Of a DNA stretch of 33,993 bases, positions 1-32,023 are shown piece by piece. The stretch is taken from positions 1 to 33,993 of the forward strand of contig CAWJBB010000064.1 of NCBI GenBank assembly GCA_963840855.1, given 5' to 3'. The translations under genes and the position numbers were made by a program. The first letter of the stretch is position 1, and each line of letters opens with the position of its first letter. Origin of the DNA: an uncultured delta proteobacterium (GTDB taxonomy: Bacteria; Desulfobacterota; Binatia; UBA9968). Below the pieces are notes generated by a model. That model did no database searches. It worked only from the letters and a program-made list of their open reading frames with translations, and was not told where the DNA came from.

Positions 1-6
1 CTAGAA

Positions 7-4322: not shown

Positions 4323-4339
4323 TAGAGCGGCATTAAAAG

Positions 4340-6031: not shown

Positions 6032-6054
6032 TGAATTCGCCCAGGCCGGAACGA

Positions 6055-6153
6055 TTGTTCAAATCGTTCGACAGGTTGCAATCGTTCAAGCGTTTTGAAC
6101 TAGTTGAACGCTTTGAACGTGTTGAAACCCCATACTCCAGTACTCCAATAATC
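6055..6153. repeat. Intergenic imperfect inverted array of 9-bp units plus short TACTCC repeats
   Basis: Four GTTCAA-like units at 9-nt period (6055-6090), then four TTGAAC-like units at 9-nt period (6095-6130), then CATACTCC/AGTACTCC/AATAATC. Confidence 0.65.
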
Positions 6154-6185
6154 GGCTGGGTCGCGCCCAGAGCGGCAAGGAGATT

Positions 6186-7250: not shown

Positions 7251-7318
7251 CTTAGAGTCTCCTTTCTGGCGTGAAAAATTTAACTGCGTTTTTTCAACTA
7301 ACGCGGATCGATGCCAAC

Positions 7319-9310: not shown

Positions 9311-9366
9311 AGGGTGAGTGTGATCCTCCTTGTGGCGCTTCGGTGATCTGCCTCGGCTCGCGGCGA

Positions 9367-9396
9367 ACTGTACTAGGGGGCGTGGTTCTTTGTCAA
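9367..9396 (-). promoter_or_regulatory. Putative sigma70 promoter for the hydrolase-SBP-permease unit
   Basis: Minus strand TTGACA-N18-TACAGT, ~55 bp upstream of the 9310 start. Confidence 0.55.
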
Positions 9397-9514
9397 ACTA
9401 ACGGGCGAAAAAGGGGCGTTTCACGATTCCATCAGACCTGTGCGGAAAGGCATTCGTAAGCACGCGAACGCTGGGCAAGAAGGACGCCAGGGGGGGCCCG
9501 CGCGGGCGCCGGCC

Positions 9515-9544
9515 TTGACACAAAGTGGAACGCGATGTTACAGC
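9515..9544 (+). promoter_or_regulatory. Possible sigma70 promoter for the 9627 SBP
   Basis: Perfect TTGACA at 9515-9520 with a weak TG-extended -10 (tgtTACAGC). Confidence 0.35.
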
Positions 9545-9626
9545 TCGGCGGAAAGGGTATCTATACGCGCGCAACTCTTTGCTCTGTCACTCGGGCGCGT
9601 AAGACCCAAAGGCTGCGGGAGGTAAA

Positions 9627-10978: not shown

Positions 10979-11506
10979 TCATTTCCTAAAGCTGACGTAG
11001 ACAAAGGGGACCGAGTAGAAGTTTTTCTCCACTTGGATATGGCAGTCGGGATGGACTTTAGCCTGGCGCCACTCGCTTAACTCGAAGGGAGAGGGTGGCA
11101 GGGCCTTTAATTGCTTTTTCTCTTGCTCGAAGCGCTGGTTGCGGCTCACCCCGTAGTCTTTCATCACCTCGCGGTTCAACCGATGAAGATATTCCCTGAG
11201 GGTTTGATTGAGATCTTGGAGAGAATAGAAGACCCGGTTACGGACCTCCTGGAAAAACCCTCTTTGGATCACTCCGATGTGGCATTCCCCAGAGCCCTTG
11301 TCCCGGGCCTTGTAGGGTCTGGCCGGCAGTACCGCAAAGCCCATGTGATTGGCAAAATCACAGTAGGTGGGATTTACATCGGGGTCGTACAGATCGGCCT
11401 TGTGGACACCGCTCTTGAGATTGTCCACCACTACGTAGGGGGTTATCCCACCAAAGTAGGCGAACATGCGCTGCTGGACCCCGATGAAGGTGGAAAGTTT
11501 GGCCAA
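10979..11506 (-). pseudogene. istA: IS21 transposase IstA fragment (part of the rve/DDE core)
   Basis: Motifs FAYFGG, VVDNLKSGV, YDPDVNPTY.DFANHMGF, PARPYKARDKG, KVHPDCHIQV..NFYSVP; N-terminal HTH/first Asp and the C-terminus are missing. Confidence 0.85.
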
Positions 11507-14689: not shown

Positions 14690-15955
14690 TCACATGCTGG
14701 TGAGGGACACCACCGGCTTTGCCTTTACCTCCCGCGGGTGCTTGCCCGGCTGGCCGGACGCCAAATCGTTCCATAAAATATCGACGATTCGCTCGGCAGC
14801 CCGACCATCCCAGCCCCAGGGCGGCACGGGGCGCGAAAACGTTTCTTGAATCGCTTTAGTAAACTCGTCCACAATGCGCTCTGGATCGATTTCGGCGACG
14901 ACATTAGCTCCACCTTCTAGAGTCACCGGCCTGGAATTGTGATCTGATAAAGTGATACAGGGAATACCAAGGACTCCACTTTCCTCCCTTACACCACGGG
15001 AGTCCGCCAGCACGACCTTGGCCGCCGTCATCAGCCGGACAAAATCGAAATACCCTAGGGGCGGAATTAGACGTATGCGCACGCGCGCATCCCAGGGCTC
15101 CGGTCCATCGAAGAAATGGTCGATAAAGTAGTCGCCTAGGTCCGCCTCGTGGATACTCTTCATGACCGCTGGACTCGCCGGGAAAACCACCGGCATGTGC
15201 TGCGCAATTTGGGAGAACGCCCGTTGCAGCCGCGACAACTTGCCTCTACCGGCGGTGTCGGACAGATGCTGTAACGAAAGCAGCGCGAACGGCCTAATGC
15301 TCGATCCGTTGCTCAACTGCAGGTCACTGAGGATAGAAGAGTCCGTCACCCGGGGGCGATGGCGTAACAGCGTGTCGATCGCTATGCTACCGACGAAATG
15401 GATTTTGTCCCGCGAAACTCCCTCTTGGAGCAGATTTCGATTGGCGCTCTCTTCAGTGGTAAAAAGATAGTCGGACAACAAATCGACGATGGCGCAATTA
15501 ACCTCTTGGGGCGACGTGCGGTGAAAACTTCTCTGTCCGGCTTCGATGTGAGCAAGCGCTGGAACTAAACTTTGCGCCTCGCCTTCGCAATGGAGCCTTG
15601 CCCGTTTGGCTACCAAGGCGCAATCGAGAGCCAAATCAACATCACCGATGACCATGACCACCGCAGGCTGCTCTTGCATTAGCACGTCCGCGAGTCGTTC
15701 GCTAATTTTGGCGCTTTTCTCGAATGGATTAGCCGCGCCTGCTACATCAAGAAACAACTGGGGTTGGGGCAGCTCTAAATCATTAAAGTAAAGATCAAAG
15801 CCACGGGTGTTACAGAATTGCCCCGTGTGCACAAGCACATGGTCGATTGGGCTATGGGGCGACCCGCGGTTGAATCGTTCGATAGCGTCGCAAATGGCCG
15901 CGGCTTTGATTAAACCCGACCTAGTATCGACTACTGATAATATCTTGAGGGACAT
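14690..15955 (-). CDS. UDP-N-acetylglucosamine 2-epimerase-like protein (WecB fold, degenerate motifs)
   Basis: Start ATG 15955 with GGGAG RBS; VHTGQ, VIGD, AHIEAG.RSF, PLGYFDF, DS.G..EE, WDGRAAERIV; several conserved residues substituted. Confidence 0.82.
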   Translation of the reverse strand: MSLKILSVVDTRSGLIKAAAICDAIERFNRGSPHSPIDHVLVHTGQFCNTRGFDLYFNDLELPQPQLFLDVAGAANPFEKSAKISERLADVLMQEQPAVVMVIGDVDLALDCALVAKRARLHCEGEAQSLVPALAHIEAGQRSFHRTSPQEVNCAIVDLLSDYLFTTEESANRNLLQEGVSRDKIHFVGSIAIDTLLRHRPRVTDSSILSDLQLSNGSSIRPFALLSLQHLSDTAGRGKLSRLQRAFSQIAQHMPVVFPASPAVMKSIHEADLGDYFIDHFFDGPEPWDARVRIRLIPPLGYFDFVRLMTAAKVVLADSRGVREESGVLGIPCITLSDHNSRPVTLEGGANVVAEIDPERIVDEFTKAIQETFSRPVPPWGWDGRAAERIVDILWNDLASGQPGKHPREVKAKPVVSLTSM

Positions 15956-16106
15956 GCCAAACTCCCGGTGTCGTCTATGTAACGCACTCGCGTTTAGGTT
16001 AACCAACGAGATAGCGTTAAGAATTTCCATCGACAGTGGTAACCATAAGGCCCCGACCACAGTTGAATTCGAGGAATGGGCTCTCCGTCTGAGCAGCTAA
16101 CTTCAG

Positions 16107-17964: not shown

Positions 17965-19116
17965 TCAAATGCAATGAATATCCGGTCCCCGTTCGATCGG
18001 CAGCAGGATTTCCACTTCGGTACCCACCCCCTCGCCGCTCTTGATCCGCAGGGTCCCGCCGTGCAGCTCGATGAACCGCGATGCCACCGTCAATCCCATG
18101 CCGTCATGACCCTTCTTGGTGGAGAAGAACGGCAGCGCCACCTGCTGCATTTCGCGGGCGGGAATACCGCACCCCGTATCTCTAACATATATTCTCGCCG
18201 CGCCGCGCAGGCCGTCGGGTATCAAACAGCCGCCAACTTCTACATTACCAGTACCGCCAACTGCTTCCAAGGCATTTTGCAAGATGTGACCGAGCGTCGT
18301 TACTAACAAGAATTGGTCGCTGGCGATGGTCGCGTCGTCGGGAATTTCCTCGAAATTCATTTGCAGCCGCACGCCGTTAGCGGCAAACTGGGATACTCGG
18401 CTCTCTGCGGCGGCCTTCATTACCTCGAGCAACTGCACTTGTGACGCCAATGAAGGCGTCTGATTGCAATCCGAGAATATCCGCGTGAGATCGATCGCCT
18501 TGTCCAAAGTCTCTTGGAGAAGTTCATTGTCTCGAGAATCGGGAAGCGATTTCTTCAGTGAATTGACAACCAGATTCAGCAATTGAAAATGATTACCCAG
18601 CTTATGAATAAAGCGGGCGACTGTTTCTTGATCTAGGGCGAGTATCCGGGGTTCCCCATAGATAGGAATCAGACAGCCATGAACCGAAGTTTCGCCTTTC
18701 CGTTCCACTTTTTGCAGGGTATGGGTGAACCAGATGGGCAAGCCAAACACATCGGCAATTCGGTGAATAAATGATGCGGCGCCACGGCTCTCCAATTCCG
18801 AGAGTTTCTGTTGAAAGAGTGGCCAGTCTTGAGCGGCGACTCTCTCCTGCCAAAACTGCGGGCGCCCAATCACAGCCTCATTATTCAGGCCAAGCAAGTC
18901 GGTCACGTTTTTTGAGACGGAAATGATTTCCAGCGAAGGCTTGGCTTCAAAGATCACACGGGGGGGGAAATCTGAATTATCATTGGATCGCTCCCCCGTG
19001 CCCGCCTCTGATTCCATTACGGATAGAGAATCAGGCTTCGCTGCTTCCCATGATCCCGCTCTGACCTCAGCGGTATGCCCCCATTGCCGCCGCCCTCGGT
19101 AATTAGGCATCACCAC
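17965..19116 (-). CDS. Cytoplasmic PAS-domain histidine kinase-like protein with atypical H-box
   Basis: PAS-like segment (VSKNVTDLLG...FWQERV); H-box ARFIHKLGNHF; HATPase boxes ILQNALEA, DTGCGI, PFFSTK, GMGL; no TM; start uncertain (19116/19110/19017). Confidence 0.8.
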   Translation of the reverse strand: MVMPNYRGRRQWGHTAEVRAGSWEAAKPDSLSVMESEAGTGERSNDNSDFPPRVIFEAKPSLEIISVSKNVTDLLGLNNEAVIGRPQFWQERVAAQDWPLFQQKLSELESRGAASFIHRIADVFGLPIWFTHTLQKVERKGETSVHGCLIPIYGEPRILALDQETVARFIHKLGNHFQLLNLVVNSLKKSLPDSRDNELLQETLDKAIDLTRIFSDCNQTPSLASQVQLLEVMKAAAESRVSQFAANGVRLQMNFEEIPDDATIASDQFLLVTTLGHILQNALEAVGGTGNVEVGGCLIPDGLRGAARIYVRDTGCGIPAREMQQVALPFFSTKKGHDGMGLTVASRFIELHGGTLRIKSGEGVGTEVEILLPIERGPDIHCI

Positions 19117-19673
19117 CGTTTATCCTCGTGTATCGAACAATTAATTCTTGCGTCAAAAAGCGATCACACATTGCCATACGAAATCATTTGGAGTCAAGGA
19201 GTTGTTATCAAAGTGTACAACTTTTCCAATACGCGAACCACATATATAGTGGTGATATTATCAGATCCGCCAAATCTAGGAAACTACACTGGTTTTCAAG
19301 GTTGTTTAACTTTATTCCACTTACCCATTATCGGCCATTTGTATCATTCACTTACTTCGCTGCGCGAACACCCGCCCGATCCAAGCTTGAATCCTCTGCA
19401 ACTATTGGCTTTTTTAGGAAATTCCCGTAAGTATAAGGTAACTACCCAACGGAGAACGTCGCCCCTGGGGGCGCAAACCGTGCTTTGCACTTAAACGATT
19501 TACAATCCGCGATGAATCGTATTGTGAATACGGCTTGCAAACATGCCGGATTGGATCATACCAAATTGCCTACAATTGTAATTGTTTTTGCTAGTTCAGG
19601 TGTAATGACCTGAAAACCGCCGGGGCTGATCGGTTAGAATGGGATTATTTGAGAGTTTTGCAGACAATTTGAA

Positions 19674-19688
19674 TGGCACTCGAATTGC
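19674..19688 (+). promoter_or_regulatory. Sigma54 (-24/-12) promoter for the regulator-dehydrogenase operon
   Basis: TGGCAC-TCGAA-TTGC with correct GG-N10-GC spacing, ~215 bp upstream of 19905. Confidence 0.72.
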
Positions 19689-19904
19689 GGTACAACCGGC
19701 ACTGATCTGATTTCGTAACATTAGGTTACATCGCGGAAGGGGATCTTGGCGGGAAAAAATTCAACGGCTGACTCCGGTCAAAAGGACCAAACGCGACGTG
19801 GAAACAAATCCAAAACACGTTGAGGGACGCCTGATTCAAGCCAACTTCTGCCAAATTTATAGTTTTTGTCGCCGTTAACCGTAATAGCGAGAGGTGCCTA
19901 ACAC

Positions 19905-20615
19905 GTGAAACCAAAAATTCTGCTTGTGGATGACGAAGACCAACTGCTCGCCCAAATGCGCTGGGTTCTGGATGGGGACTATGAAATTCTTACCGCAACC
20001 AACGAGCGTGACGCGCTAAACGCGTTCGCGGCGGAACGGCCTTCGGTGGCCGTAGTCGACTTGTCCCTGAACCGGGCGAGCCCACTAGACTTGGGCGGCT
20101 TACGCTTGATCGAGAAGTTTCTCGAGCAGGATCCCGCTACCCGAATTATCGTTGTCACCGGCATTGAGGATGACACCAACGCGCTGCAAGCCGTACGCCT
20201 GGGGGCCTATGACTACTATTCGAAGCCCATCCGACTCGCCGATCTCAAGGTCATGATCCAACGCGCCGTCGAGGTCCACCGCATTCATCAACGGCTGAAT
20301 AGTATTCAAGCTGGAGCCAATAAGACTCTTGAGAACCAAATTCAGTCGGGACCGTTACCGCTGCTTAACGGTCCCGGCCGGGAAATCGAATCGATTGGCA
20401 ACGAGGTCAATCTTAAGCTCGCCAAAAGGGCGATTGAGTTGGAGTTCGTGAAAAAAGCGCTCGCAAAAAACAACGGCATTGTAAGCCGCGCTGCCAGAGA
20501 ACTGGGAATTAGCCGCGTCAACCTCTATGAGCTCATCGAAAAGCACAACATAGGAATCAATGAGTTTAAGGCGGTTAGACCGCGCACCATACGACACAAC
20601 ACCCCGGAGGCATGA
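19905..20615 (+). CDS. PrsR-like response regulator lacking the AAA+ domain (REC + Fis-type HTH)
   Basis: REC LLVDDE..QMRW.L...Y, VDLSL, VVTG, GAYDYYSKPI resembles the PEP-CTERM regulator PrsR; directly followed by LK.AKR.IE..FV.KAL..NNG.VSRAARELGISRVNLYEL; no Walker A or GAFTGA; GAGG RBS before GTG. Confidence 0.8.
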   Translation: MKPKILLVDDEDQLLAQMRWVLDGDYEILTATNERDALNAFAAERPSVAVVDLSLNRASPLDLGGLRLIEKFLEQDPATRIIVVTGIEDDTNALQAVRLGAYDYYSKPIRLADLKVMIQRAVEVHRIHQRLNSIQAGANKTLENQIQSGPLPLLNGPGREIESIGNEVNLKLAKRAIELEFVKKALAKNNGIVSRAARELGISRVNLYELIEKHNIGINEFKAVRPRTIRHNTPEA

Positions 20616-20619
20616 GTCG

Positions 20620-22002
20620 ATGGAACCACTGAAACAAAAACTCGAAGGGCGCAATGCGACGGCGGCCGTTATCGGCCTGGGCTATGTAGGGTTGCCGCTA
20701 GCGATGGAAATCGCGGCTGCGGGATTCAAAGTCGTCGGCATCGATCTCGACCGGAACAAAATTGCCGACCTTAGGGAAGGAAAGTCTTATATATTGGACG
20801 TGCCGTCGGCTACCGTCGCCGATGCGGTGAAAGCTGGCAGGTTCACTCCGACAACCGATTTCAGCGCGCTCCGCGATGTGGACGCCGTTAGCATCTGCGT
20901 GCCGACTCCTCTCAGTAAAAGCCGCGACCCCGATATTTCGTTTATTCTCGCCGCGACGGAGGAAATTCGAAAGTATCTGCACAAGGACCAGTTGATCGTG
21001 CTGGAGAGCACTACTTATCCGGGCACCACCGAGGAATTGATTCTGCCGGAACTGGAGGCTGGGGGCCTGCGCGCCGGCAGCGACTTTTTTCTCGCCTTTT
21101 CACCAGAACGTATAGACCCTGGAAACGTATCGTTCAATACCCACAACACTCCAAAAATCGTTGGCGGTATCACCCGGAACTGCGGCGAAATGGCGCATGT
21201 TTTCTACTCGCAATTTATCGAGCGGGTCATTCCCGTCAGCAGCAGCAAGTGCGCCGAAATGGTGAAGCTTTTGGAAAACACCTTCCGTAGCATCAATATC
21301 GGCATGATCAACGAAATGGCCTTGATGTGCGATCTGCTTGGCGTCGACGTGTACGAGGTGATTGACGCGGCGGCGACCAAGCCATTCGGGTTCAGCCCTT
21401 TTTATCCCGGCCCCGGCCTTGGCGGACACTGTATCCCTATCGATCCACATTACCTCGCCTGGAAGCTCAAGGCGCTCAATTTTCAGGCGCGATTCATCGG
21501 CCTGGCCGCCGAGATCAACGGCATGATGCCAACGGTAGTAAACAGCATGGTCGCCGATGGACTCAACCTACATTCGAAAAGTATCCGAGGGTCAAAAATC
21601 ATGATCCTCGGCGTCGCTTACAAAAAAAACGTCAGTGACTGCCGGGAATCGCCCGCACTGGATGTCATGCGCCTCCTTAGCCAAAAAGGAGCTGTGCTTT
21701 CCTACAACGATCCGTTTGTGCCAAGTATGCGTTTGAACGGGGAAGTTCTCCGATCGCTGGAGTTGTCGCCCCAGTCAATCGCAAACCAGGACTGTCTCAT
21801 CATTCTCACCGACCACAGCATCTACGACTTCAAAGCAATCATCGCGTCGGCAAAATTAGTGATCGATACCCGAAACGCCACCAAGGGATTCGATGAATTC
21901 AAGGACCGAATCATCAAACTCGGCGCCGGTAACAAAGCTGCGGTAGTCGGTCACCACGAAGACGAGCATGACATGGACGGGCCAGTCCAACTCAGGCATT
22001 AG
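20620..22002 (+). CDS. Nucleotide-sugar 6-dehydrogenase (WbpA/WecC family; probable UDP-GlcNAc dehydrogenase)
   Basis: Start ATG 20620; GLGYVGLPLA, ICVPTP, ESTTYPGTT, FSPERIDPGN, KLLENTFR, catalytic GGHCIPIDP, LGVAYK...D.RESP. Confidence 0.92.
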   Translation: MEPLKQKLEGRNATAAVIGLGYVGLPLAMEIAAAGFKVVGIDLDRNKIADLREGKSYILDVPSATVADAVKAGRFTPTTDFSALRDVDAVSICVPTPLSKSRDPDISFILAATEEIRKYLHKDQLIVLESTTYPGTTEELILPELEAGGLRAGSDFFLAFSPERIDPGNVSFNTHNTPKIVGGITRNCGEMAHVFYSQFIERVIPVSSSKCAEMVKLLENTFRSINIGMINEMALMCDLLGVDVYEVIDAAATKPFGFSPFYPGPGLGGHCIPIDPHYLAWKLKALNFQARFIGLAAEINGMMPTVVNSMVADGLNLHSKSIRGSKIMILGVAYKKNVSDCRESPALDVMRLLSQKGAVLSYNDPFVPSMRLNGEVLRSLELSPQSIANQDCLIILTDHSIYDFKAIIASAKLVIDTRNATKGFDEFKDRIIKLGAGNKAAVVGHHEDEHDMDGPVQLRH

Positions 22003-22201: not shown

Positions 22202-25200
22202 CTACTTACCGTGGCAGCGCTTGTACTTTTTGCCGCTGCCGCAGGGGCAGGGATCGTTGCGGCCGATCTTTTCACCTTCGCGTTTTACAGGCGTGGCGCG
22301 GCCGGCATCTAGATTTTCACCGCCGTGACTGAGAACCATTCTTTGCGGGCGGGTTTGCCGTACTTCTAGTTCCTGAGCGGCGCTCTCGCGCGCGATTTCT
22401 ACCGTGAAGAGCTTTTGCACGACGTCTTCCTGGATGCGGTGGGCCATTTCCTCAAACATGTCAAAGCCCTCTTTTTGGTATTCCTGGAGAGGGTTTTTCT
22501 GCCCATATCCGCGCAGGCCGATGCCCTCCTTCAGATGGTCCATATTGAGTAGATGGTCCTTCCAGAGGCCGTCGATGGTTTGGAGCATGATGATCTTTTC
22601 CAGCTGGCGGAGCATCGGCGCTGTAAAACGTTTCTCTTTGTCTTCGTAAGCCTGGTTGATTCTTTCCATCGCCAGTTCCGTCAGAGCATCCAGCTTTAAC
22701 CCCTCCGCCGCTTCGGGTAATGGATCGAAACGTAAATTGAACTGGTGCAACAATCCTTCGCGCAGCCCGTTCCAATCCCAGTCCGAAGCGTGGTCGTCCG
22801 CTTCAGCGTAACGCGACACGACTTCGGTGGCGAGGCCTGCGGCCATGTCCAACACCTCCGCCTTCAGCGTCTCACCCTTGAGCACTTCGCGCCTTTGATT
22901 GTAAATGACCTCCCGCTGCTTATTGAGCACATCATCGTACTCCAGCAGGTGTTTGCGGATATCGAAGTTATGCGCCTCGACCTTCTTCTGGGCGTTTTCT
23001 ATGGCCCGCGTCACTAAGCCGTGCTCGATGGGTTCTCCTTCTTCCATGCCCAACCGGCCCATGATCCCCTGAATCCGGTCGGCGCCGAAAATGCGCATCA
23101 GGTCATCTTCTAAGGACAGATAAAATCGCGATGAGCCAGGATCGCCTTGGCGTCCCGCCCGGCCGCGCAACTGGTTATCGATGCGCCGGCTCTCGTGGCG
23201 TTCCGTGCCGAGAATATGCAAACCGCCCGCGGCGATCACCCGGTCATGTTCCGCGGCACAAACCTCGTTGTAGCGCGCTAGAATCTCGTGGAAACGGTGG
23301 CGGTACTCATCCGGCGCCTTTTCCAACTGCTCCCGGATTTCTTCCACGACGCGTAGATACTCTTGCCGTTTGGTTTCGTAGGTTAGCTGCGCTTCCTGCA
23401 CCGCCGCTTCATAGGGCTCGCGGACTTCATCGCAGCGCAGTTCGGCTTCTTCGAATGCGCGGTGAACGGTCTCATATTCCCGCGCCAACGGCGCATGTTC
23501 TCCTTCGGCGAACTGCTCCAAAGTCCTTTCAAACTCCAGATCGATCAAGCGCTGCTCGTAATTGCGCCGCTGGTCGTCGAGGGCTTCGACCAAGTCCTGG
23601 CGCTCGCCATTTTTCTTCTGCCAACGGTCAATCAACTCACCGAACTTTTGGCGCGCATCCTCGAAGTCATCGTCCTCATCGCCGCCGTTCGATTCCAACA
23701 GCGCTCCTTCGAACTCTTCCTTTGCTCTAAGATATCCACTGGGAATCTGCTGCATGCCGTGCAACGCTTCGATCAGTTCGGTGGACGAAAGGTCTTCGTA
23801 ACGTTGCCGCGCCTCACGGAATGGCGAAACGCCGCGAATCTCTTTCTGGAGTTCCGTGGAGCGCTTGAGGGCGTCGCTGCGCTGCTGCTGATAGACCTCG
23901 CCCTCCGTCAGATAGCGCTTTTCCGCCTTCTGGATATCTTCCTCGTATTTTTCGCGCAATTCCCGGAGCGCGTCTTCGTAGCGCGCCGCGCCTTGCGCGG
24001 GCAATTTGGTCGCCCGGCTGATCCACTCATTCTCCATGTCCGAGCGGGCCAAAAATTCAGGGTTCCCGCCCAAAAGGATATCTGTTCCCCGGCCCGCCAT
24101 GTTGGTGGCGATGGTTACAGCGCCGAAACGTCCCGCCTGCGCGATGATCGATGCCTCGGCCTCATGGTTGACGGCGTTGAGAACGTTGTGTTTGATCCCT
24201 TTCTTCTTGAGCAAGCGCGAGAGCTTCTCCGATTTCGCCACCGACGTGGTGCCCACCAGGATCGGCTGGCCCTTCGTATTGCGCTCCTCTATCTCGTTCA
24301 CCACCGCGTCGAATTTTTCCCGCTCCGTGCGATAGACCACATCAGCGTTATCCACACGAATCATATCGCGATGGGTCGGCACCACGACGACGTCGAGCTT
24401 GTAAATTTTCTTGAACTCCGGAGCCTCGGTGTCCGCCGTGCCGGTCATGCCGCCGAGCTTTTTGTACATCCGAAAATAATTCTGGATCGTGATCGTCGCC
24501 AGCGTCTGGTTTTCTTCGCGGATGCGCACGCGCTCCTTGGCCTCCACCGCCTGGTGCAGGCCATCGGACCAGCGCCTTCCCGGCATCAAGCGCCCGGTAA
24601 ATTCATCGACGATGAGCACTTCACCTTCCTTGATGACGTAGTCGACGTCGCGTTTAAAGATAGCGTGGGCCTTGAGAGCCTGCTGCACATGGTGCAATGT
24701 GTCGATCTGCCGCGGATCGTAGAGGTTGTGCACGCCGAGCAACCGTTCCACCTTCGCGACGCCCGTTTCCGTCAGGGTTACCGCGCGGCTCTTTTCATCA
24801 ACGGTGTAATCACCCTGTTTCTCGATGGCGGCACGGTCTTCCTGGTTGGGATCGCCCTGGATCACCGCTCCGCGCTGCAATTTCGGGATAATGCGGTCGA
24901 TGTTGTAATATTTGTCCGTGGATTCCTCCGCCGGTCCGGAGATGATCAGCGGCGTTCTCGCTTCGTCGATCAGAATATTGTCTACCTCGTCCACGACGGC
25001 AAAATTAAGCTCCCGCTGGACGTAATCCTCGATGGAGAACTTCATGTTGTCGCGCAGGTAGTCGAACCCGAACTCGTTATTGGTGCCGTAAGTAATATCG
25101 GCGCGGTAGGCCTCTTGCCGCGATATCGGACGTAGATTGAGATAGCGGTAATCCTTTGTGATATAAGTGGGGTCGAAAAGATAGCTCACGTCGTGCACGA

Positions 25201-25792
25201 TGGAGGCCACCGACACTCCCAATTTGTGATATATCGGCCCCATCCACTGCACGTCGCGCCGGGCGAGATAATCGTTGACGGTAATCAAATGGACACCACG
25301 CCCGGTGAGGGTGTTGAGATATAACGGCAAGGTCGCTACTAGCGTCTTACCTTCCCCCGTGCGCATCTCGGCGATGGTGCCGCCGTGTAGGACAGCCCCG
25401 CCGATCAGCTGCACGTCGAAATGGCGCAACCCAATGGTGCGGCGCGACGCTTCGCGCACCGCCGCAAACGCTTCCGGCAACAGTTCGTCCAAAACATCCG
25501 CTTCAGCCTGACGCAGCTGCTTGTCCAACTCCGCCACACGCTCTTGGTGCTCCTCACGCTGCTCCGCCTCCAACGATTCGAACCCCGCCTCGGCCTCCCC
25601 AAGCTCCTTACGCACCGCGGCAGTGGACTCCTGAAGTCGGTTCTTGAACTGCTCGGTCTTGGCCCTGAGCTCGTCATCCGTGAGCTTTTGATATTCCGGT
25701 TCGAGCGCATTGACCAGCTCCACCAAAGGACGAAGCCGTTTAATTTCGCGCTCGTTCTTGGTCCCGACGACTTTCTTTATCCAGCTCAACAT
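22202..25792 (-). CDS. secA: Preprotein translocase ATPase SecA (enlarged, 1196 aa)
   Basis: [83 protein letters not shown]-terminal [19 protein letters not shown]; GAGGAG RBS. Confidence 0.98.
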
Positions 25793-25894
25793 TTTTAAGC
25801 TTCAACTCCTCGCCGGCTGTCACGCCGCCGCTCCTTTTAAAATACACGATTTCGGCGACTTGTGACAGCATTATGAAGCAGACGAATCGATCAT

Positions 25895-26695
25895 TCAACG
25901 CTCGATACGCACCGCTGATTCGACTTTTTCGCCGAGAAACCTCTGGCCAACCTTGACGAAGCGATCGGGCGCGTCGGTCACAAAGAACCCATGCGCGCCT
26001 TTGCCTTTTTTGCGCGCCAGGGATCGCCGCCTAAGTAGCGCGGCCACTTCGATGGCAATCTCTTCAGCCGAATCCACCAACCGCATCGCTTTGCCCATAA
26101 ATCCGCGAATCGCCTTTTTTAGCAAGGGGTAGTGCGTACAGCCAAGGATCAGGGTATCGATACCGCTCTGCTTGAGGCTGCCCAGATAGTTCTTCACGGT
26201 CAGCTCCACCACGGCGTTGTCGGTCCAGCCTTCCTCTACCAACGGGACGAATAACGGGCACGCTCGGCTGTAGACCTCGATGGCGGAATCGGCGGCTTTC
26301 AACGCGCGCGTATAGGCGCCGCTCTGGATCGTGGCGTCCGTACCGATGACGCCGATCTTCTTATTCTTCGTGCTTTTGACAGCGCGCCTTACGCCGGGCT
26401 CGATGACGCCGATCACTGGGACCGCAAAACGCTCGCGCAAGCGACCCAGAGCGATAGCCGTTGACGTGTTGCATGCCACGACGAGGAGTTTGACGTCCTT
26501 TTCGACGAGGAATTCCCCGTTCTCGAAAGAGTATCGCAAAACGGTTTCAACGGACTTGGTGCCGTAGGGCGCGCGCGCGGTGTCGCCCAGATAGACCGTA
26601 TTTTCCCTGGGCAGCGCCTCGATAATCTTGTGCAGGACCGTTAGTCCGCCGATGCCCGAGTCAAAGACGCCGATGGCGCTGTCGCGATTGGCCAT
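25895..26695 (-). CDS. murI: Glutamate racemase
   Basis: IGVFDSGIGGLTV, GDTARAPYG, catalytic VACNTS and LGCTHYP. Confidence 0.97.
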   Translation of the reverse strand: MANRDSAIGVFDSGIGGLTVLHKIIEALPRENTVYLGDTARAPYGTKSVETVLRYSFENGEFLVEKDVKLLVVACNTSTAIALGRLRERFAVPVIGVIEPGVRRAVKSTKNKKIGVIGTDATIQSGAYTRALKAADSAIEVYSRACPLFVPLVEEGWTDNAVVELTVKNYLGSLKQSGIDTLILGCTHYPLLKKAIRGFMGKAMRLVDSAEEIAIEVAALLRRRSLARKKGKGAHGFFVTDAPDRFVKVGQRFLGEKVESAVRIER

Positions 26696-26704
26696 GAAAG
26701 ACCG

Positions 26705-27799
26705 CTAATGGGTCGGCGCCAACTGCAAGCCCAGCTCTTTTTCACAGCTGGGAGCATAACCGAACACCTGTTTCCAAACTTCCCGTGACTCCATGCAAAG
26801 GTACACTTTGACCGTCGGCGCGGCCCGGCGAATCCAGCCGAACATTGTCCGGTACATGGCGACGCGCAACGGCTGGAAGTAACGCAGCTTGCCATCGGGA
26901 CAAAGCACCTGTTCACCTGTGATCAGTGACGAACGGGGAAAGCGCTCGCGCATGATTCGCTTCAAGTCCGGCGTGATGCGCACGACGCCCATGCTGAGCC
27001 ACGCAATACGCCGCCAGTCGACGGTGGCGAACAACTGCTCCAGCATATCCTGGTAGTCTCTCTCCCAGCCGGGGTACTCGATCATGGGGTCGAAATGAAA
27101 TCCCAGACGGTAGCCGGCCTCCTGGCAGCGGCCGGCGGCGCGCAAGCGCTCCTGGAGAGTGGCTGTCCCCTGTTCATGGAGGTCGATAACCCGCTCCGGG
27201 TTCATTGACCAGGCGACTACGACCCGGTCTTTGGGATCCAGCGCCAACAGCTCATCAACGCAGTCGCTCTTGGTTTTCAACTCCAGCAGCGTGTTGGGCT
27301 GCTCGGCGAAAAAAGGAACGATTTCCCGGCTGAAGCCGATGTAGGGGTCGAGGGCGAGACTATCGGTGATCTCGCCTGTGCCGATGCGAAAAAAGAAACG
27401 GCGATGCTTGGATAGCAACTCGTCGGCCTCACGCAGTAGATCCCCGGTGTTGCTGAACACTGTCAACGCCGGGTTGTCGCTCAGATACTCTTGCAGATAG
27501 CAGTAGCTGCAGTCCATCGTGCAGTTGCTGGCGAAATTGATGACGAAGTAGTTGCAACAAACCTGTCCGTCGCTGCCGGGGCACTTTTTTAGAAACTCGC
27601 CTTTATGCGCGGCGACGAAAAGTCTTTTTTTGGCCGCTCCGAAAGAAGCTTCGGCGAGCCGCACACGCCCGTTGGCCGCCACGCCGTCGTCAAGTATCTT
27701 GAACGGCACTGCGGGCAACCTTTGGCGCAGCCGCTGAAACACGGGGCTTGCCAGGGAAGCGTGCTCAACGATGATTTCTTCGGGATCGAAACAATGCAT
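26705..27799 (-). CDS. Spore photoproduct lyase-like radical SAM protein
   Basis: CxxxCxxC as CTMDCSYCYLQ; GTGEITDSL, LELKTKS, RL.AA..C...GY..G.HFDP, DGKLRYF, YLCME are typical of SplB-like proteins of non-sporulators. Confidence 0.85.
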   Translation of the reverse strand: MHCFDPEEIIVEHASLASPVFQRLRQRLPAVPFKILDDGVAANGRVRLAEASFGAAKKRLFVAAHKGEFLKKCPGSDGQVCCNYFVINFASNCTMDCSYCYLQEYLSDNPALTVFSNTGDLLREADELLSKHRRFFFRIGTGEITDSLALDPYIGFSREIVPFFAEQPNTLLELKTKSDCVDELLALDPKDRVVVAWSMNPERVIDLHEQGTATLQERLRAAGRCQEAGYRLGFHFDPMIEYPGWERDYQDMLEQLFATVDWRRIAWLSMGVVRITPDLKRIMRERFPRSSLITGEQVLCPDGKLRYFQPLRVAMYRTMFGWIRRAAPTVKVYLCMESREVWKQVFGYAPSCEKELGLQLAPTH

Positions 27800-27805
27800 G
27801 GGTTC

Positions 27806-28357
27806 TCAACCGTCTGTCTTCGTATCCGCCGCGGTACCGGCCAATAACGCGAAAGCTTCTCTGATCGCTTCTTGATCGGCGGCATCGGCCAGCTTGGCGG
27901 CGAGTCTTTTTAGTTCTTGTTGGCTCGACGCGCTGAACTCAACTCGCAGTCGGCCGCCCTCGAGTCCGATCGGCGCTGAGAGTGTGATCTCAGGCTGCAA
28001 TTTCAGCGCGGCGATGCGCGCCCTGAGCGCATCCTCGGTCTGGGCGAGCCGGGGGAATCTTTGCCGTCTCACCTCTTCCTTAATGCGCTTGAGCTTGTCG
28101 GCGCGGCCCAAGCGCGGGTCAGTTTGGATATCCGCGATGACTCTGTCCGCCAGGATCGCGTCGATGGCGCGGCCATCGCGCAGCGCGATCTCCTCGAGCC
28201 AGTCCATGAGATCGCGCAAATGATTTTCACCGATCTTAAGTGCCAGGGCGAGCCGGCACAGCGCGGCGCTAGCCGGCGGTTCCCAGCCCAACCAGCGCGT
28301 GAGAGTCCGCGGATGAAATCCCCGCGCCTTGGCGTACTCCCGAACTTGGTCCTGCAT
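27806..28357 (-). CDS. Hypothetical protein resembling the C-terminal half of ParB-like proteins
   Basis: 183 aa, helical; GGAG RBS; C-terminal EGGRLRVEFSASSQQELKRL resembles the ParB dimerisation beta-beta-alpha pattern; no GxxRxxA CTPase motif. Confidence 0.6.
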   Translation of the reverse strand: MQDQVREYAKARGFHPRTLTRWLGWEPPASAALCRLALALKIGENHLRDLMDWLEEIALRDGRAIDAILADRVIADIQTDPRLGRADKLKRIKEEVRRQRFPRLAQTEDALRARIAALKLQPEITLSAPIGLEGGRLRVEFSASSQQELKRLAAKLADAADQEAIREAFALLAGTAADTKTDG

Positions 28358-29273
28358 TATTTACCGGCTCCAAAATGGACTGGTCAAACTCATCCCGGAT
28401 TGCTTCAAAGGCCAGCGCATCGCCTTCGCGGCCCCGTTTTCTCGCGCCCGCCGCGAGAACGGAAACTTTGCGCTCTAACTCGGCCAGAACCCACTGGCGG
28501 CGCTCGCCTGCGAGACCGGAACGCAATAGTTTTTGCAGCGACGCGACGCGAAAGCGGTCCATGCCCCACACGGAATGTGAAAGCTGGTCTATATGCCCTC
28601 CCCGTTTGACGACCAGCGCTTGCGCCAACAACGGCACCGTATGATCGACGGCGGTGCGCAGCCAGAGATCGTAGTCTTCACACACCGGCAGCGCTTCATC
28701 AAATCCGCCGACCTTGTGAAACAACGCGCGCGTGATCATGACCGCCGAAGGGCTCACCAGGCAGAGTTCGAGACTGCGCTTAAAAATATCGCCGGAGGGT
28801 TTGCGATGCCTGGCTTTGGGATTGACGCGCGCGCCGCCGCGAATCCAGATCTCTTCGGTTTGGCAAATGCCGACTTCGGGATGTTCTTCCATGAACCCCA
28901 TTTGCGCCGCCAACTTCTCTGGCAGCCATAGATCGTCCGAATCCAAAAAAGCCAAATAACAACCTTTGGCGGCACTCACTCCCACATTGCGCGCCGCCGC
29001 GACACCACGGCGCGGCTGGCGGATGACCCGAATCGGGGCGCCCAGCCGGCGTAATTTCACTTCAGACTCATCCGTGGAACCATCATCGACGACGATCAGC
29101 TCAAAGTCAGTGAAAGTCTGCGCCAGCACGGATTCCACCGCTTCCCGGAGCATGGGCCAGCGATTATACGTCGGAATGATGACGCTTACGCAAGGTGACA
29201 AGAGCTGCTTTGTACCTTTCACTGATTTGGCGTCCGCGATGTAAACCAACCCTGAGGCAGGGAAGCCGGTCAA
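28269..29273 (-). CDS. Glycosyltransferase family 2 (GT-A)
   Basis: VSVIIPTYNR, VVDDGSTD, AAARN.G, AFLDSDD, GGFDE...CEDYDLWLR; TTG start overlaps the upstream TGA; no TM segments. Confidence 0.92.
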   Translation of the reverse strand: MTGFPASGLVYIADAKSVKGTKQLLSPCVSVIIPTYNRWPMLREAVESVLAQTFTDFELIVVDDGSTDESEVKLRRLGAPIRVIRQPRRGVAAARNVGVSAAKGCYLAFLDSDDLWLPEKLAAQMGFMEEHPEVGICQTEEIWIRGGARVNPKARHRKPSGDIFKRSLELCLVSPSAVMITRALFHKVGGFDEALPVCEDYDLWLRTAVDHTVPLLAQALVVKRGGHIDQLSHSVWGMDRFRVASLQKLLRSGLAGERRQWVLAELERKVSVLAAGARKRGREGDALAFEAIRDEFDQSILEPVNNAGPSSGVRQGAGISSADSHALVGLGTAG

Positions 29274-29701
29274 AGAAAACTTTCCATCTTTTTGAAAAAC
29301 TGCTCCACCATCATCTTAGTTACGCCGTTTAGCATCCGCTGGCCAATGGCGGCGATCAGCCCACCCACCTGGGCATCGGTGCTGTACTTGAGCAGCGTTT
29401 TGCCGCCCAGTTCTTCAAGATCAATGGCCAAATCGCCGCGCATGAAGCCCGGCCCCCCCTGGCCTTCACCGCTGAGCACGTAATGCGACGGTGCCTTTTT
29501 ATCTTTGATGCTGACTTTGCCTTTGTATGTTCCCTTTACCGAGGCAATGCCCACCTTCATGACGGCTTCGTATTGATCCGGCGCTATTTCGTTCATGCTT
29601 TCACAACCGGGCATACACTGCTTCATGGTCTTGGCGTCGAGCAAAACCTGCCAGACCCGCTCCCGCGGCGCATTCAGCGTATAGCTACCTTCGATCTTCA
29701 A
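29270..29701 (-). CDS. coxG: CoxG/SRPBCC family protein
   Basis: APRERVWQ.LLD....QCMPGCE, VGIASVKGTY.G, AQVGGLIAAIGQR; strong GAGGAGG RBS before TTG. Confidence 0.85.
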   Translation of the reverse strand: MKIEGSYTLNAPRERVWQVLLDAKTMKQCMPGCESMNEIAPDQYEAVMKVGIASVKGTYKGKVSIKDKKAPSHYVLSGEGQGGPGFMRGDLAIDLEELGGKTLLKYSTDAQVGGLIAAIGQRMLNGVTKMMVEQFFKKMESFL

Positions 29702-29986
29702 GCTGCCCTTCCTCCTCGTTTAAGCGGCCCGCGGCTTCTATTCGCGCCGATAAACACATAATAAACGAAGCCGCTTCGCGGGCGAGATTTTGACCCCGCC
29801 CTTGAACAAAGGGGATGCTCGTCCCCTTCGGAAACCCCATAATGTTGGTCTCGTCACAAGAGGCGGAGTCTACATAGAATAATTGTGCAAAAACAATAAC
29901 GTTCAGCGCGGGAAAACACAACCCTGGCGCGCCGCGCAGATTGTTATTGAATAGGCGCTTTAGGTTCGCTACACTTGACTGAAATC

Positions 29987-32023
29987 ATGCGTTCTTTCGC
30001 CAGCTTACTCATCGCAATTTGCATGATTGCCGGATTACCGGCGGCACTCCATGCCGACGAAATGGAGCAACTCGCAATTTTCGCCAAGGCCCACGCGCTC
30101 TACACGCAGGGAAACAACACCGGCGCGCGGGATCTTTTTCGCCAGACTCTAAGTGAAAAATTCCCCCTGGCCGACTACAGCCTCTATTATCTGGCAACGA
30201 TCGCATTTGCCGAAAAAGCCTGGGACGAGTGCCGGCGCATGGTCGCCCGCCTCAAGCGCGAATTCCCGCAGAGCCTGTGGGTCCATGCCGCGGAGCTGCA
30301 ACAGGTAAAGGCCGACCTCGCCGAGAAAAAATTCTCTGAAGCGGCGGCGGTGCTTCGTTCTCTGCGCTCAAAAAGAGCGGTAAAGAACGATATTCTCGAA
30401 GAAGCATTGTTTCTCCAAGCCCAGACGTCAGGCGATACCAAGCAGGCCTACGATCTCTACCAGCAATTGCGCGAGCAATTCCCGAACTCGCAGTGGACGC
30501 CTGCGGCGCGCCGCGAACAGGCGCTCCTGAGAGAAAAACAGCCGGAGAATTTCCCTTTCCACACGGTCGCCTCATCGATCGCCGATGCCGATCAGTTGAT
30601 CCGCGAGCACGCCTACGGCGAAGCTGAAATCATGTTGAAAAGACTCCTGAATAACGCCGAAGATCCCGATCTCAAGCTCCGCCTTTTGAACAAGCTCTCA
30701 GGACTCTACCTCACGGTGCGCCGGAGACCCGACGCGGTCCCGTTGCTGGAACAGATCGCGCGCGATTACCCTGAAACCACCGACGCCCCCAAGGCGCTCT
30801 ATCAGATCGGCCAGATCCTCTGGAATCGCCACGACAACGCCGCGGCGTTGGAGGTTTTCAAGCAGCTCATGGCGCGCTATCCGACTAGCTCCGTCGTCGA
30901 TCGAGCCTTCTATGCCGCCGGTGATATCCAAGAGTGGATGGGAAACAAAGACCAGGCTGTCGCGCACTACAATATCTTGAGGGTGGAATTCCCGGGTAGC
31001 CAGGTGCGCGACGACGCCACCTGGCGGCTCGCTTGGCTGTATTACCGCGCCGGTGAACTGTCTGAAGCCTATCGAACCTTCAAACTCCTGGCCTCGGAGG
31101 CGCGCGAGAGCGCGCTCAAAACCGCGGCGCATTATTGGCAAGGGCGTGCGGCCGAAAAGGCCGGCGACGGCGAACTCGCCAAGCGGATTTACAGCGAGGT
31201 TTACGAGGCCGGCGCGGAAAGTTATTACCAGGCGCTCGCCGCCAACGCCCTCGCCAAGCTTGGCGCCCCGGTGCGACAGCAAAATTTCGACCGGCCTCGG
31301 CGCGGCCGCGATCCCGACCCCCCCAACACGCCTCGTATCGCTTTTCACCTCGTGCGGGCGCGGGCGTTATCGGCGCTGGCACTGCGCTCGCTGGCCGCGG
31401 CGGAGATCGGTGCCATCGAAGATCTTGCGGGAACCGACAACGAGGCGCGGCTCTTTTTATCGCGCGAGTATTTCAAAAATCAGGCTTATCGCAGAAGCCT
31501 CGCCCTGGCCACACAGCTTCCCGTTTCCGAAACCGAACGCGACTATTACCGTTTTCCACTGGCCCACTGGGATTTGATCCAAAGCAAGGCCCATGAACTT
31601 GGAATGGACCCTTATTTGATTCTGGCGCTGATTCGCCAGGAAAGCCTGTTCGACGCCCGCGCGCGCTCGCCCGCGGTTGCTCTCGGTTTGATGCAGCTCC
31701 TGCCATCGACCGCCGCCCGCGTGGCTAGCCGCATCGGCATGCCTGCGCCTTCCAATGAAAAGTTGTTCGACCCCGAGGTCAATCTCACCCTTGGGACGCA
31801 ATACTTGAAAGACCTAATGCAGCGCTATTCCAATAGTTGGTTCAAGGCCATCGCCGCCTATAATGCCGGCGAGGCCGCGGTGGACCGCTGGGAAAAAGAA
31901 ATCATCACCGACGACATCGAAGAGTTTGTCGAGCGCATCCCCTATCTCGAAACCCGCGGCTATGTAAAGCTGGTGATGCGCAATCATCGCATTTACAAAA
32001 GACTCTACGAGCAAAAGAAATGA
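29987..32023 (+). CDS. TPR-repeat soluble lytic transglycosylase (Slt family)
   Basis: Signal peptide, many TPR-like repeats, SLT motifs ALIRQESLF (catalytic Glu), GLMQLLPST, AAYNAG, ETRGYV; start 29987 or 29975. Confidence 0.92.
   Translation: MRSFASLLIAICMIAGLPAALHADEMEQLAIFAKAHALYTQGNNTGARDLFRQTLSEKFPLADYSLYYLATIAFAEKAWDECRRMVARLKREFPQSLWVHAAELQQVKADLAEKKFSEAAAVLRSLRSKRAVKNDILEEALFLQAQTSGDTKQAYDLYQQLREQFPNSQWTPAARREQALLREKQPENFPFHTVASSIADADQLIREHAYGEAEIMLKRLLNNAEDPDLKLRLLNKLSGLYLTVRRRPDAVPLLEQIARDYPETTDAPKALYQIGQILWNRHDNAAALEVFKQLMARYPTSSVVDRAFYAAGDIQEWMGNKDQAVAHYNILRVEFPGSQVRDDATWRLAWLYYRAGELSEAYRTFKLLASEARESALKTAAHYWQGRAAEKAGDGELAKRIYSEVYEAGAESYYQALAANALAKLGAPVRQQNFDRPRRGRDPDPPNTPRIAFHLVRARALSALALRSLAAAEIGAIEDLAGTDNEARLFLSREYFKNQAYRRSLALATQLPVSETERDYYRFPLAHWDLIQSKAHELGMDPYLILALIRQESLFDARARSPAVALGLMQLLPSTAARVASRIGMPAPSNEKLFDPEVNLTLGTQYLKDLMQRYSNSWFKAIAAYNAGEAAVDRWEKEIITDDIEEFVERIPYLETRGYVKLVMRNHRIYKRLYEQKK

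Follow-up and report, generated by a model that had tools for sequence, protein, structure and literature searches.

What do a glycosyltransferase, a small protein reminiscent of ParB and a radical S-adenosylmethionine (SAM) enzyme of the spore photoproduct lyase (SPL) family do side by side on a bacterial chromosome? The question is raised by a stretch of 33,993 nucleotides, hereafter the window, from an uncultured delta proteobacterium (GTDB lineage Desulfobacterota, Binatia, UBA9968; assembly GCA_963840855.1, contig CAWJBB010000064.1), in which a family 2 glycosyltransferase (GT2), a protein of 183 amino acids (p183) and an SPL-like enzyme are encoded one after the other. We find that GT2, p183 (or a longer ParB-like protein in its place) and the SPL-like enzyme form a genuine conserved module, and that this uncharacterised trio is widespread among non-sporulating bacteria of soils and sediments. 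What we report below as observation is the linkage of the three genes, their genome-wide co-occurrence, two gene fusions, the homologies of the parts and the residues that these have retained. With a probability of about 0.4, we read the trio as a ParB-assisted pathway of nucleic-acid, probably DNA, modification or repair that includes a sugar transfer. We found no paper describing a GT2/ParB-like/SPL-like module; the main text of PMC12704722, in its available part and leaving its supplements aside, nowhere mentions radical SAM, glycosyltransferase or photoproduct. The three genes are the following.

28269-29273, minus strand: GT2 glycosyltransferase of the GT-A type, 334 aa as the longest open reading frame (ORF), TTG start; Pfam Glycos_transf_2.
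27806-28357, minus strand: p183, 183 aa, stand-alone homolog of the C-terminal half of ParB/Noc-like proteins, with no Pfam or NCBIfam match.
26705-27799, minus strand: SPL-family radical SAM enzyme, 364 aa; Pfam SPL, E 2.4e-35.

Does this arrangement persist elsewhere? The first-pass annotation, made from the sequence by a model, had joined five genes, from a coxG-like gene to murI, into one apparent operon, had mentioned similar GT2/ParB-like/SPL-like neighbourhoods in deltaproteobacteria, and had proposed a neighbourhood survey as a check. A scan of species-representative genomes yielded 42 related loci, with Candidatus Binatia, Deltaproteobacteria, Syntrophobacter(aceae), Thermodesulfobacteriota, Myxococcales and a small number of further names in their record titles. 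By tblastn with the window's proteins, all 42 have GT2 immediately before p183 on the same strand, and the SPL-like gene comes immediately after p183 in each of the 39 loci whose sequence is long enough (that of L005, L029 and L035 stops at p183). The neighbourhoods mentioned in the annotation are borne out. The two outer genes behave differently. Among the 37 class-level loci whose sequence continues past the SPL-like gene, 33 have murI next (the exceptions are L034, L037, L041 and L042), and it follows in none of 10 further phylum loci having the SPL-like gene beside a ParB-like gene; coxG lies upstream in most class-level loci and is missing from L034, L037, L038 and L040-L042. The middle gene of L041 and L042 encodes 320-338 aa, and a lysine-rich Rho_N-like small protein and a short-chain dehydrogenase/reductase (SDR) take the place of coxG and murI; the genomes of the window and of L041 belong to the same phylum. 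coxG and murI are thus lineage-specific neighbours outside the conserved unit. The five-gene operon is too wide a reading, and the alternative of a cell-wall function, which had been built on MurI, loses its main support.

A search with the long form gave 29 further loci in the phylum: 17 with GT2, ParB-like and SPL-like genes together, three with ParB-like and SPL-like genes (two of them cut by a contig start), two with GT2 and ParB-like genes (one cut by a contig end) and seven with the ParB-like gene alone. Sixteen extended loci comprise six trios, four ParB-like/SPL-like pairs, one case with the SPL-like gene 6.4 kb away and five lone ParB-like genes. The missing members can be found elsewhere in the genome: a GT2 ortholog, 49-56% identical, in each of the five genomes lacking an adjacent GT2 (where paralogs reach at most 43% identity), and an SPL-like gene in each of the five with a lone ParB-like gene.

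We then counted co-occurrence in a fixed sample of 151 genomes, at thresholds of E 1e-20 for the SPL-like enzyme and E 1e-60 for the GT2 ortholog, the latter value being set after the gap between orthologs and paralogs had been seen. The C-terminal half of the ParB-like protein is matched in 66 genomes, the SPL-like enzyme in 88 and the GT2 ortholog in 79. GT2 and the SPL-like enzyme are both present in 78 genomes and both absent from 62, with one genome having GT2 only and 10 the SPL-like enzyme only; the corresponding figures for the ParB-like C-terminal half and the SPL-like enzyme are 65 both, 62 neither, one ParB-like only and 23 SPL-like only. Where a genome has both of these last two genes, they lie side by side in 43 cases out of 65. 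The sole GT2-only genome is also the sole ParB-only one (G076), with the genes at a contig end, and some of the 23 SPL-only genomes have a diverged ParB-like gene beside the SPL-like gene that the C-half query missed (G005, G051, G123; L111-L113). A tally of 318 of 401 obtained with a full-length query is not a prevalence figure, as that query also matches canonical ParB. p183 homologs, mostly short forms, occur in 43 of 81 genomes of the window's class in an all-or-none fashion by family (9/9, 9/9, 0/9 and 0/9, for example). The arrangement of the trio in the related loci (42/42 and 39/39) exceeds chance, and of the 79 genomes with a GT2 ortholog, 78 also have the SPL-like gene.

Two fusions, each supported by a frame check and by Pfam, tie the members together pairwise: L109 encodes ParB_N and SPL in one frame of 639 codons, and L116 encodes GT2 and ParB_N in one frame of 617 codons. 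Other apparent fusions (L110-L113 and L117, including an SPL-murI one in L110) were rejected, the matches lying in different frames and the long frames being an effect of high GC content. L107 presents a separate oddity: its SPL-like enzyme occupies the end of an 806-codon frame (L107:235-2652) whose first ~420 codons have no Pfam match, and the gene that follows (L107:2670-3353) is a staphylococcal-nuclease homolog. PADLOC assigned no family to GT2, p183 or the SPL-like enzyme, and gave a weak MTase_II match (E 6e-06) to the long form, over its ParB_N part. Viral contigs searched with the SPL-like alignment returned one weak locus, 29% identical over 80 residues.

The surroundings of the module vary from lineage to lineage. 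The Rho_N-like protein, of 105-115 aa with a lysine-rich tail, lies directly upstream of GT2 in the L041-type loci (L041:4243-4560, L042:4179-4526, L051-L062), with a Pfam match to Rho_N in the L080 ORF only (E 6.8e-06). In one lineage (L082, L083, L084 and L086), a gene for a 394-aa protein of metallo-beta-lactamase fold follows the SPL-like gene with a 4-nt overlap (for example L082:5209-6393), making a four-gene cluster, and DUF218 and SDR genes lie near the cluster in L082 and L086. purC, encoding SAICAR synthetase, is immediately upstream of the ParB-like gene in L087, L089, L090, L093 and L095, with or without an adjacent SPL-like gene, and overlaps it by ~11 nt in L089, L093 and L095. 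The lone ParB-like genes of another lineage (L064-L070) are flanked by a 366-aa cysteine-rich protein of Fe-S type and by what appears to be a Sir2-like deacetylase, judged by eye from N-terminal sequences; those of its genomes that are in the 151-genome sample (G017, G130) carry the SPL-like and GT2 genes on other contigs.

In the window itself, the trio is framed by these genes.

29270-29701, minus strand: coxG-like SRPBCC protein, 143 aa; Pfam COXG, E 2.4e-27.
25895-26695, minus strand: murI, glutamate racemase, 266 aa; TIGR00067, 258 bits against a cut-off of 146.65.
22202-25792: secA, the next gene after murI.
29975-32023: lytic transglycosylase (Slt), divergent, upstream of the coxG-like gene.

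The family calls of the first-pass annotation (COXG, Glycos_transf_2, Pfam SPL and glutamate racemase) all hold in Pfam and NCBIfam. In the ORF list, the junctions of the five co-oriented genes are also as first described, with a 4-nt overlap between coxG and GT2, an 89-nt overlap between GT2 and p183, a 6-nt gap between p183 and the SPL-like gene and a 9-nt gap between the latter and murI; however, the first of these overlaps depends on the TTG start of GT2. An alternative TTG at 29198, 25 codons inward, is the start used by six relatives (L002, L004, L006, L009, L028 and L036) and is probably the true one, which would give a protein of 309 aa, and the 4-nt overlap is therefore probably a 71-nt gap. 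The start of p183 at 28357 is supported by the conservation of residues 1-30 in 17 of 17 aligned relatives and by a GGAG 10 nt 5' of it, so the 89-nt overlap is real. The GT2 tail that overlaps p183, its last ~30 codons, is conserved in the close clade only and is missing even from some close relatives (L003, for example). In Kyte-Doolittle profiles with windows of 19 residues, GT2, p183 and the SPL-like enzyme never exceed 1.4, against 2.17 for the signal region of the neighbouring Slt, which is consistent with three soluble proteins and with the earlier description of GT2 as soluble.

Evidence of expression is weak. Metatranscriptome contigs 90-99% alike, from four runs of three studies on soil or unspecified libraries, span parts of all five genes, with two runs reaching across from the SPL-like gene into murI and one from p183 into the SPL-like gene; such contigs cannot prove a single transcript and may reflect DNA carry-over, and uncovered bins carry no meaning. 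A scan of positions 25600-30100 found no promoter-like site upstream of the trio, in a region where such predictions do not usefully exceed those in shuffled sequences (four promoter-like sites against 1.6 expected, five terminator-like sites against 6.1). The host genome, 94.17% complete with 8.27% contamination, contains neither SASP nor Spo0A_C, which fits the non-sporulator that the annotation had supposed.

How close is the SPL-like enzyme to SPL itself? It matches the Pfam SPL family (PF20903) with 122.5 bits against a cut-off of 27 and stays below the SPL equivalog TIGR04070 (139.6 bits against a cut-off of 400, and 135.9 for the L041 ortholog). The profile of its family, positions 3-297, aligns with chain residues 30-323 of a solved SP lyase at E 5.3e-42, and the subfamily, taken at a threshold of E 1e-40, comprises 2542 proteins or more. 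The enzyme had been described as a non-canonical SPL, which does not apply to its cluster motif: this is the canonical CX3CX2C (C93, C97, C100), invariant in the 28 sequences of our alignment (A5), as are Y99, Q103, G-T-G-E, E-L-K-T-K, W-S, H-x-D-P, R274, D302, K304 and R306 and, outside the cluster motif, the cysteines C73, C81, C82 and C335.

According to the available part of PMC3467042, SPL grips the intra-lesion phosphate through Arg273 and Lys309, a hairpin with Arg304 and Tyr305 at its tip may flip the lesion out, and Cys140 is the hydrogen donor, clostridial SPLs using instead a cysteine (Cys77) at the position of Ser76. R274 of the SPL-like enzyme aligns with Arg273, an equivalent of Tyr96 is kept, and C73 aligns with residue 103 of the 4RH0 chain, which is native position 76 given the 27-residue offset and corresponds to the clostridial hydrogen-donor site. 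R306, invariant, and Y307, conserved in at least 90% of sequences, fit the hairpin tip by position alone, the hairpin lying beyond the HMMER alignment. C81 and C82 are located in an insertion that the solved SP lyase lacks, and C335 is likewise absent from it over the aligned part; these three cysteines could ligate a second Fe-S cluster.

What kind of protein is p183? Taken alone, it gives no Pfam match at E 0.01 or better, including to ParB_N (PF02195) and to the ParB C-terminal dimerisation domain, no NCBIfam match, and a single phmmer match in the PDB at E 0.063. It has 988 close homologs, and a profile of 17 of these, searched against 1.84 billion representatives, finds 1826 proteins at E 1e-3 or better. 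Among the best 150 matches, 51 are proteins of 314-351 aa matched in their C-terminal half; the profile aligns with these C-terminal halves (~170 residues of ~320-aa proteins) at E 1e-16 to 4e-23, and alignments of p183-type and long-form sequences (A2, A6) have invariant columns in common, including the LRD/E, R-F/Y-P and E-G motifs. ParB_N was found on nine of the 12 long relatives scanned, eight times above cut-off, the three others being of 236-272 aa. A profile of the long forms, which retain the G-x-R-R and E-N-x-x-x-R motifs, matches the N-domain and DNA-binding region of solved Myxococcus ParB, Noc, Caulobacter ParB and Spo0J (E 7e-24 to 3e-14), and the family profile matches solved ParB/Noc/Spo0J at E 1e-23; the small-molecule kinases SbnI and SerK, of the ParB/Srx fold, are among the weak matches.

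p183 begins just after the stretch aligned to the ParB helix-turn-helix (HTH), its residues 1 to ~30 corresponding to the end of the ParB DNA-binding region. Since it is homologous to the C-terminal half of the long forms and starts past the HTH stretch, p183 is a ParB/Noc-like protein that has lost its nucleotide-binding N-domain and HTH core, a remnant recognised by sequence comparison. The earlier label 'ParB-C-like' is therefore right as to homology with the C-terminal half of ParB_N-bearing ~320-aa proteins and not supported if taken to mean the Pfam ParB C-terminal dimerisation domain. The host has a single ParB_N gene, a canonical ParB of 303 aa separate from p183. In an AlphaFold2 model (mean predicted local distance difference test, pLDDT, 83.7), residues 1-117 are helical and are followed by a small alpha/beta domain at 120-175, a beta-alpha-beta-alpha-alpha unit with pLDDT 68-83. 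Foldseek against the PDB returned nothing for this model at E 0.001 or better. With VIA-align, the best of 48,161 chains was a designed helical protein (Z 7.3), and the VirB core domain scored Z 5.5 with a root mean square deviation of 3.1 over 84 residues; both are within background, and no fold was assigned.

A complex prediction, which the first-pass annotation had also proposed together with Foldseek, yielded support, though no demonstration, of binding for one pair. Alignments of GT2 (residues 24-306), the SPL-like enzyme and p183 served as input, p183 being set as the partner. The model scored 0.73 (0.73, 0.73 and 0.74 in three runs) against 0.00 for the best of three controls; the mark used is reached by 116 of 157 solved complexes and two of 215 mismatched pairs, a calibration that holds only approximately for an input of three chains and alignments made by us. 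No fewer than 96% of contacts recur between runs, and the pLDDT of the partner is 86 or more. p183 residues 55-60, 100-107, 130-136 and 171-175 are placed against residues 284-344 of the enzyme, and these p183 ranges contain its invariant positions E55/E56/I57, R100-L104 and G131-G135, that is, the RFPRL and GLEGG motifs. On the enzyme side, the contacts involve conserved residues of the C-terminal subdomain, flank positions 302-307, and stay clear of the parts lining the SPL active site (the cluster and the GTGE, ELKTK and HFDP regions). p183 is thus predicted to bind the C-terminal subdomain of the SPL-like enzyme through its invariant motifs, and the position of the contacts outside the active site leads us to model it as a subunit and not as a substrate held in the pocket. 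The complex model lists no GT2-p183 contact with an expected error under 8 A, which speaks neither for nor against binding of GT2.

GT2 matches Glycos_transf_2 (PF00535) at E 1.8e-37, with 129.3 bits against a cut-off of 23.3. Its alignment (A4, 25 sequences) has invariant DDGS, DSDD, CEDY and GGHxDQLS motifs, DSDD being the DxD motif. Among the 25 listed of 28 matching NCBIfam families, it rises above no equivalog cut-off, the best being TuaG (101.9 bits against 400), with EpsD (99.3 bits), EpsE, PglI, WcaA and MftF among the others; in the PDB, chondroitin synthase is matched at E 3.3e-28. Within the phylum, GT2 constitutes a tightly conserved orthologous group, 48-86% identical in all but four of 79 matches (43-47% for those four). 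The window also encodes a UDP-N-acetylglucosamine (UDP-GlcNAc) 2-epimerase and a protein of the UDP-glucose/GDP-mannose dehydrogenase family, at 14690-16060 and 20560-22002, 6-14 kb from GT2 and separated from it by secA and two-component regulators; these genes could supply a uronic-acid sugar donor.

How might the three proteins work together? SPL and ParB are families with a known substrate, which for both is DNA, and phages offer a precedent for ParB-dependent base modification; for these reasons we rank a nucleic-acid pathway first. In the part of PMC13229309 available, some phage thymine dioxygenases require a ParB homolog on double-stranded DNA, and the commonest neighbours of these enzymes are glycosyltransferases (31%) and ParBs (27%). 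DNA as the substrate gains indirect support from these ParB-dependent enzymes and from the substrate-handling residues of SPL that our alignment suggests are retained. The SPL-like enzyme would make a 5'-deoxyadenosyl radical and carry out a hydrogen abstraction of the SPL type on a flipped-out pyrimidine or pair of pyrimidines. The conserved motifs of p183 would dock on its C-terminal subdomain, flanking the hairpin that is thought, in SP lyase, to flip the lesion, so that the ParB-derived partner may be an activator or a delivery subunit of the radical SAM enzyme; the full-length ParB-like forms probably add a nucleotide-gated association with DNA. GT2 would belong to the same pathway, most likely moving a sugar to the product or the substrate of the enzyme. 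That DNA is what the trio acts on, how the enzyme reacts and what the sugar is for are points that we infer.

Several points weigh against this proposal. The nearest named families of GT2 act on lipid-linked or polymer glycans and not on DNA, and the link of all three proteins to DNA is one that we infer only. In the SPL-like enzyme, the position of the Bacillus-type Cys140 is occupied by Glu143, by a manual count on the alignment; Tyr98 of SPL is not kept family-wide, being Tyr in the window's clade (Y101) and Val, Ile or Ala elsewhere; and the three extra invariant cysteines hint at a chemistry outside the SPL repertoire. p183 and the other short forms have neither N-domain nor HTH, and the long forms, where they align with the ParB HTH, have acidic and hydrophobic residues instead of basic ones; DNA binding by the partner may therefore be dispensable. 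The 151 sampled genomes are related and partly incomplete, so that their counts are not independent and Fisher values overstate independence. Last, the module differs from the DNA hypermodification systems known so far: it lies on the chromosome in conserved synteny, passes on by vertical descent, has no PADLOC match and turns up in viral contigs a single time, weakly.

Could the trio serve a glycoconjugate of the envelope or a small molecule? GT2 would then build or decorate a glycan, a nucleotide sugar or a cell-wall precursor, the SPL-fold enzyme would tailor a sugar or nucleotide moiety, and the ParB-derived protein would be a mere scaffold, its long forms possibly acting as a nucleoside triphosphate-binding subunit. 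We regard this as possible, if unlikely. The best named relatives of GT2 are indeed glycan builders (TuaG, EpsD and chondroitin synthase, at the scores given above), the short forms have no ParB DNA-binding part, the ParB/Srx fold includes small-molecule kinases (the weak matches SbnI and SerK), and the context offers murI after the trio in 33 of 37 class-level loci, a divergent lytic transglycosylase upstream, and the UDP-GlcNAc 2-epimerase and UDP-sugar dehydrogenase elsewhere in the window. However, few lineages other than that of the window have murI, slt and coxG next to the trio, which is accompanied by no flippase, polymerase, priming transferase or membrane segment, and the enzyme keeps the residue corresponding to Arg273, which in SPL handles the dinucleotide phosphate, with an Arg-Tyr pair at the hairpin-tip position (by position alone). 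We know of no SPL-family member that acts on sugars, nor of any that acts on protein. The latter bears on a further scheme, a very doubtful one, in which the ParB-like or another protein is itself the substrate, modified by the radical SAM enzyme and glycosylated by GT2: the most conserved loops of p183 (RFPRL, GLEGG) are those predicted to touch the enzyme, and L116 fuses GT2 to the ParB-like protein, but the predicted contacts at 284-344 leave out the active-site regions. Least credible of all, hardly worth a place among the candidates, would be unrelated neighbours held together by vertical descent. The block from coxG to secA is syntenic within the class, where adjacency could be inertia; on the other hand, the trio recurs in different contexts, co-occurs when unlinked, is fused pairwise in two genomes and passes a controlled complex prediction.

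Two readings keep DNA as the substrate and change the chemistry or the part played by GT2. Plain repair would make the enzyme a lyase for spore-photoproduct-like or other intrastrand pyrimidine cross-links, for example in desiccated or irradiated cells, with the ParB-derived partner recruiting or activating it and GT2 co-selected for another part of the stress response, such as a sugar protectant, away from DNA. SPL is the only characterised activity of the family, its catalytic and substrate-holding residues appear to be retained, and SplB-like enzymes with DNA-repair adaptors have been described, with ImuB-C and with NreA (available parts of PMC3765255 and PMC4929162). Also in its favour, the 14 DNA runs in which at least 34% of the words sampled from the stretch occur bear the label 'metagenome' or 'soil metagenome', and the four metatranscriptome libraries with contigs 90-99% alike are of soil or unspecified origin. 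Yet the GT2-ParB-like fusion of L116, the 89-nt overlap between GT2 and p183 and the co-occurrence in 78 of 79 genomes argue for a GT2 that works with the other two; many carriers are labelled as sediment-type anaerobes (Thermodesulfobacteriota, Syntrophobacter, KSB3), in which UV photoproducts are unlikely, and the enzyme scores far under the SPL equivalog cut-off. We consider plain repair improbable. Slightly less probable still is an oxygen-independent, chromosomal counterpart of the base-J or glycosyl-5-hydroxymethyluracil route. Here the radical SAM enzyme would take a hydrogen from a flipped-out thymine, through the allylic or C6 radical chemistry known in the opposite direction from SPL; C81, C82 and C335 would carry an auxiliary Fe-S cluster oxidising the substrate radical, which could then take up water; the new hydroxyl would be glycosylated by the co-evolving GT2; and the ParB-derived subunit would open or target duplex DNA, as phage ParBs do for thymine dioxygenases. 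Were this the case, many anaerobic and soil bacteria would possess a housekeeping glycosylated DNA base.

Four other features of the window can be mentioned briefly. Positions 1-10649 form a transporter-rich block, unrelated to the trio, with four solute-binding-protein genes, two long ATP-binding cassette permease genes and an alpha/beta hydrolase. A 175-aa ORF at 10979-11506, whose one match is to the Mu transposase C-terminal domain (E 4.6e-11), is probably a transposase remnant. GC content dips to 0.46 at 19001-20000, against 0.52-0.61 elsewhere, around the divergent region between a histidine kinase gene and a response regulator gene. Finally, a frame of 557 codons antisense to secA (23462-25135, plus strand) is an artefact of high GC content and no gene; similar long antisense frames gave rise to the false fusions of L110-L113.

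Whichever chemistry applies, a large SPL-like subfamily is now defined, with two obligate genetic partners and a predicted interface, in a radical SAM family of which SPL is the only characterised member. If the sugar ends on DNA, the trio would make, independently of oxygen, a DNA modification found in many bacteria; if something other than DNA is acted on, the SPL fold has a second chemistry. For our preferred reading of a ParB-assisted nucleic-acid pathway, the trio is a chromosomal example of what has recently been suggested, a ParB fold reused as a partner of base-modifying enzymes, and one in which the dominant ParB-like form, in the window's class, is a remnant without a nucleotide-binding domain.

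How does the module compare with known systems? With SplB (TIGR04070; Geobacillus thermodenitrificans, PDB 4FHC-4FHG and 4RH0), the window enzyme shares the family, the CX3CX2C motif, the equivalents of Tyr96 and Arg273 and a cysteine at the clostridial position; it differs by a score far under the equivalog cut-off, by Glu in place of Cys140, by the added C81, C82 and C335, and by the company of a ParB-derived partner and a GT2 in a host without SASP and Spo0A_C. The SplB-like enzymes associated with ImuB-C in bacteria (PMC3765255) and with NreA in archaea (PMC4929162) are likewise SPL-related proteins of non-sporulators, genetically tied to a DNA-associated partner; the partner families are other ones, and the available text mentions no glycosyltransferase. 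The purpose of SPL-like enzymes in non-sporulators is raised as a question in PMC4929162.

GT2 has the GT-A fold with a DxD and a downstream acidic motif in common with soluble GT2 glycan builders (TuaG, EpsD/EpsE, PglI, WcaA and the C-terminal domain of the chondroitin synthase K4CP), whereas it stays far under the cut-off of every named equivalog and belongs to its own ortholog group, which tracks the SPL-like gene. The long relatives of p183 match the N-terminal and DNA-binding domains of the chromosomal CTP-dependent clamps ParB, Noc and Spo0J (PDB 7BNK, 7NFU and 6SDK), of which p183 itself has neither ParB_N nor the HTH core, its C-terminal half being a family-specific domain for which Pfam has no model. 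A parallel for the trio as a system is the phage enzyme 5mYOX176 with ParB176 (available part of PMC13229309). The phage enzyme is a phage-borne Fe(II)/2-oxoglutarate dioxygenase and that of the trio a chromosomal radical SAM enzyme; in both cases, a ParB homolog with no obvious DNA-binding domain is the cognate partner of the enzyme, as predicted for the trio, and glycosyltransferases are the commonest co-occurring genes. In 5mYOX176 the enzyme acts on C5 of a pyrimidine in DNA, and a C-terminal extension matters for its dependence on the partner.

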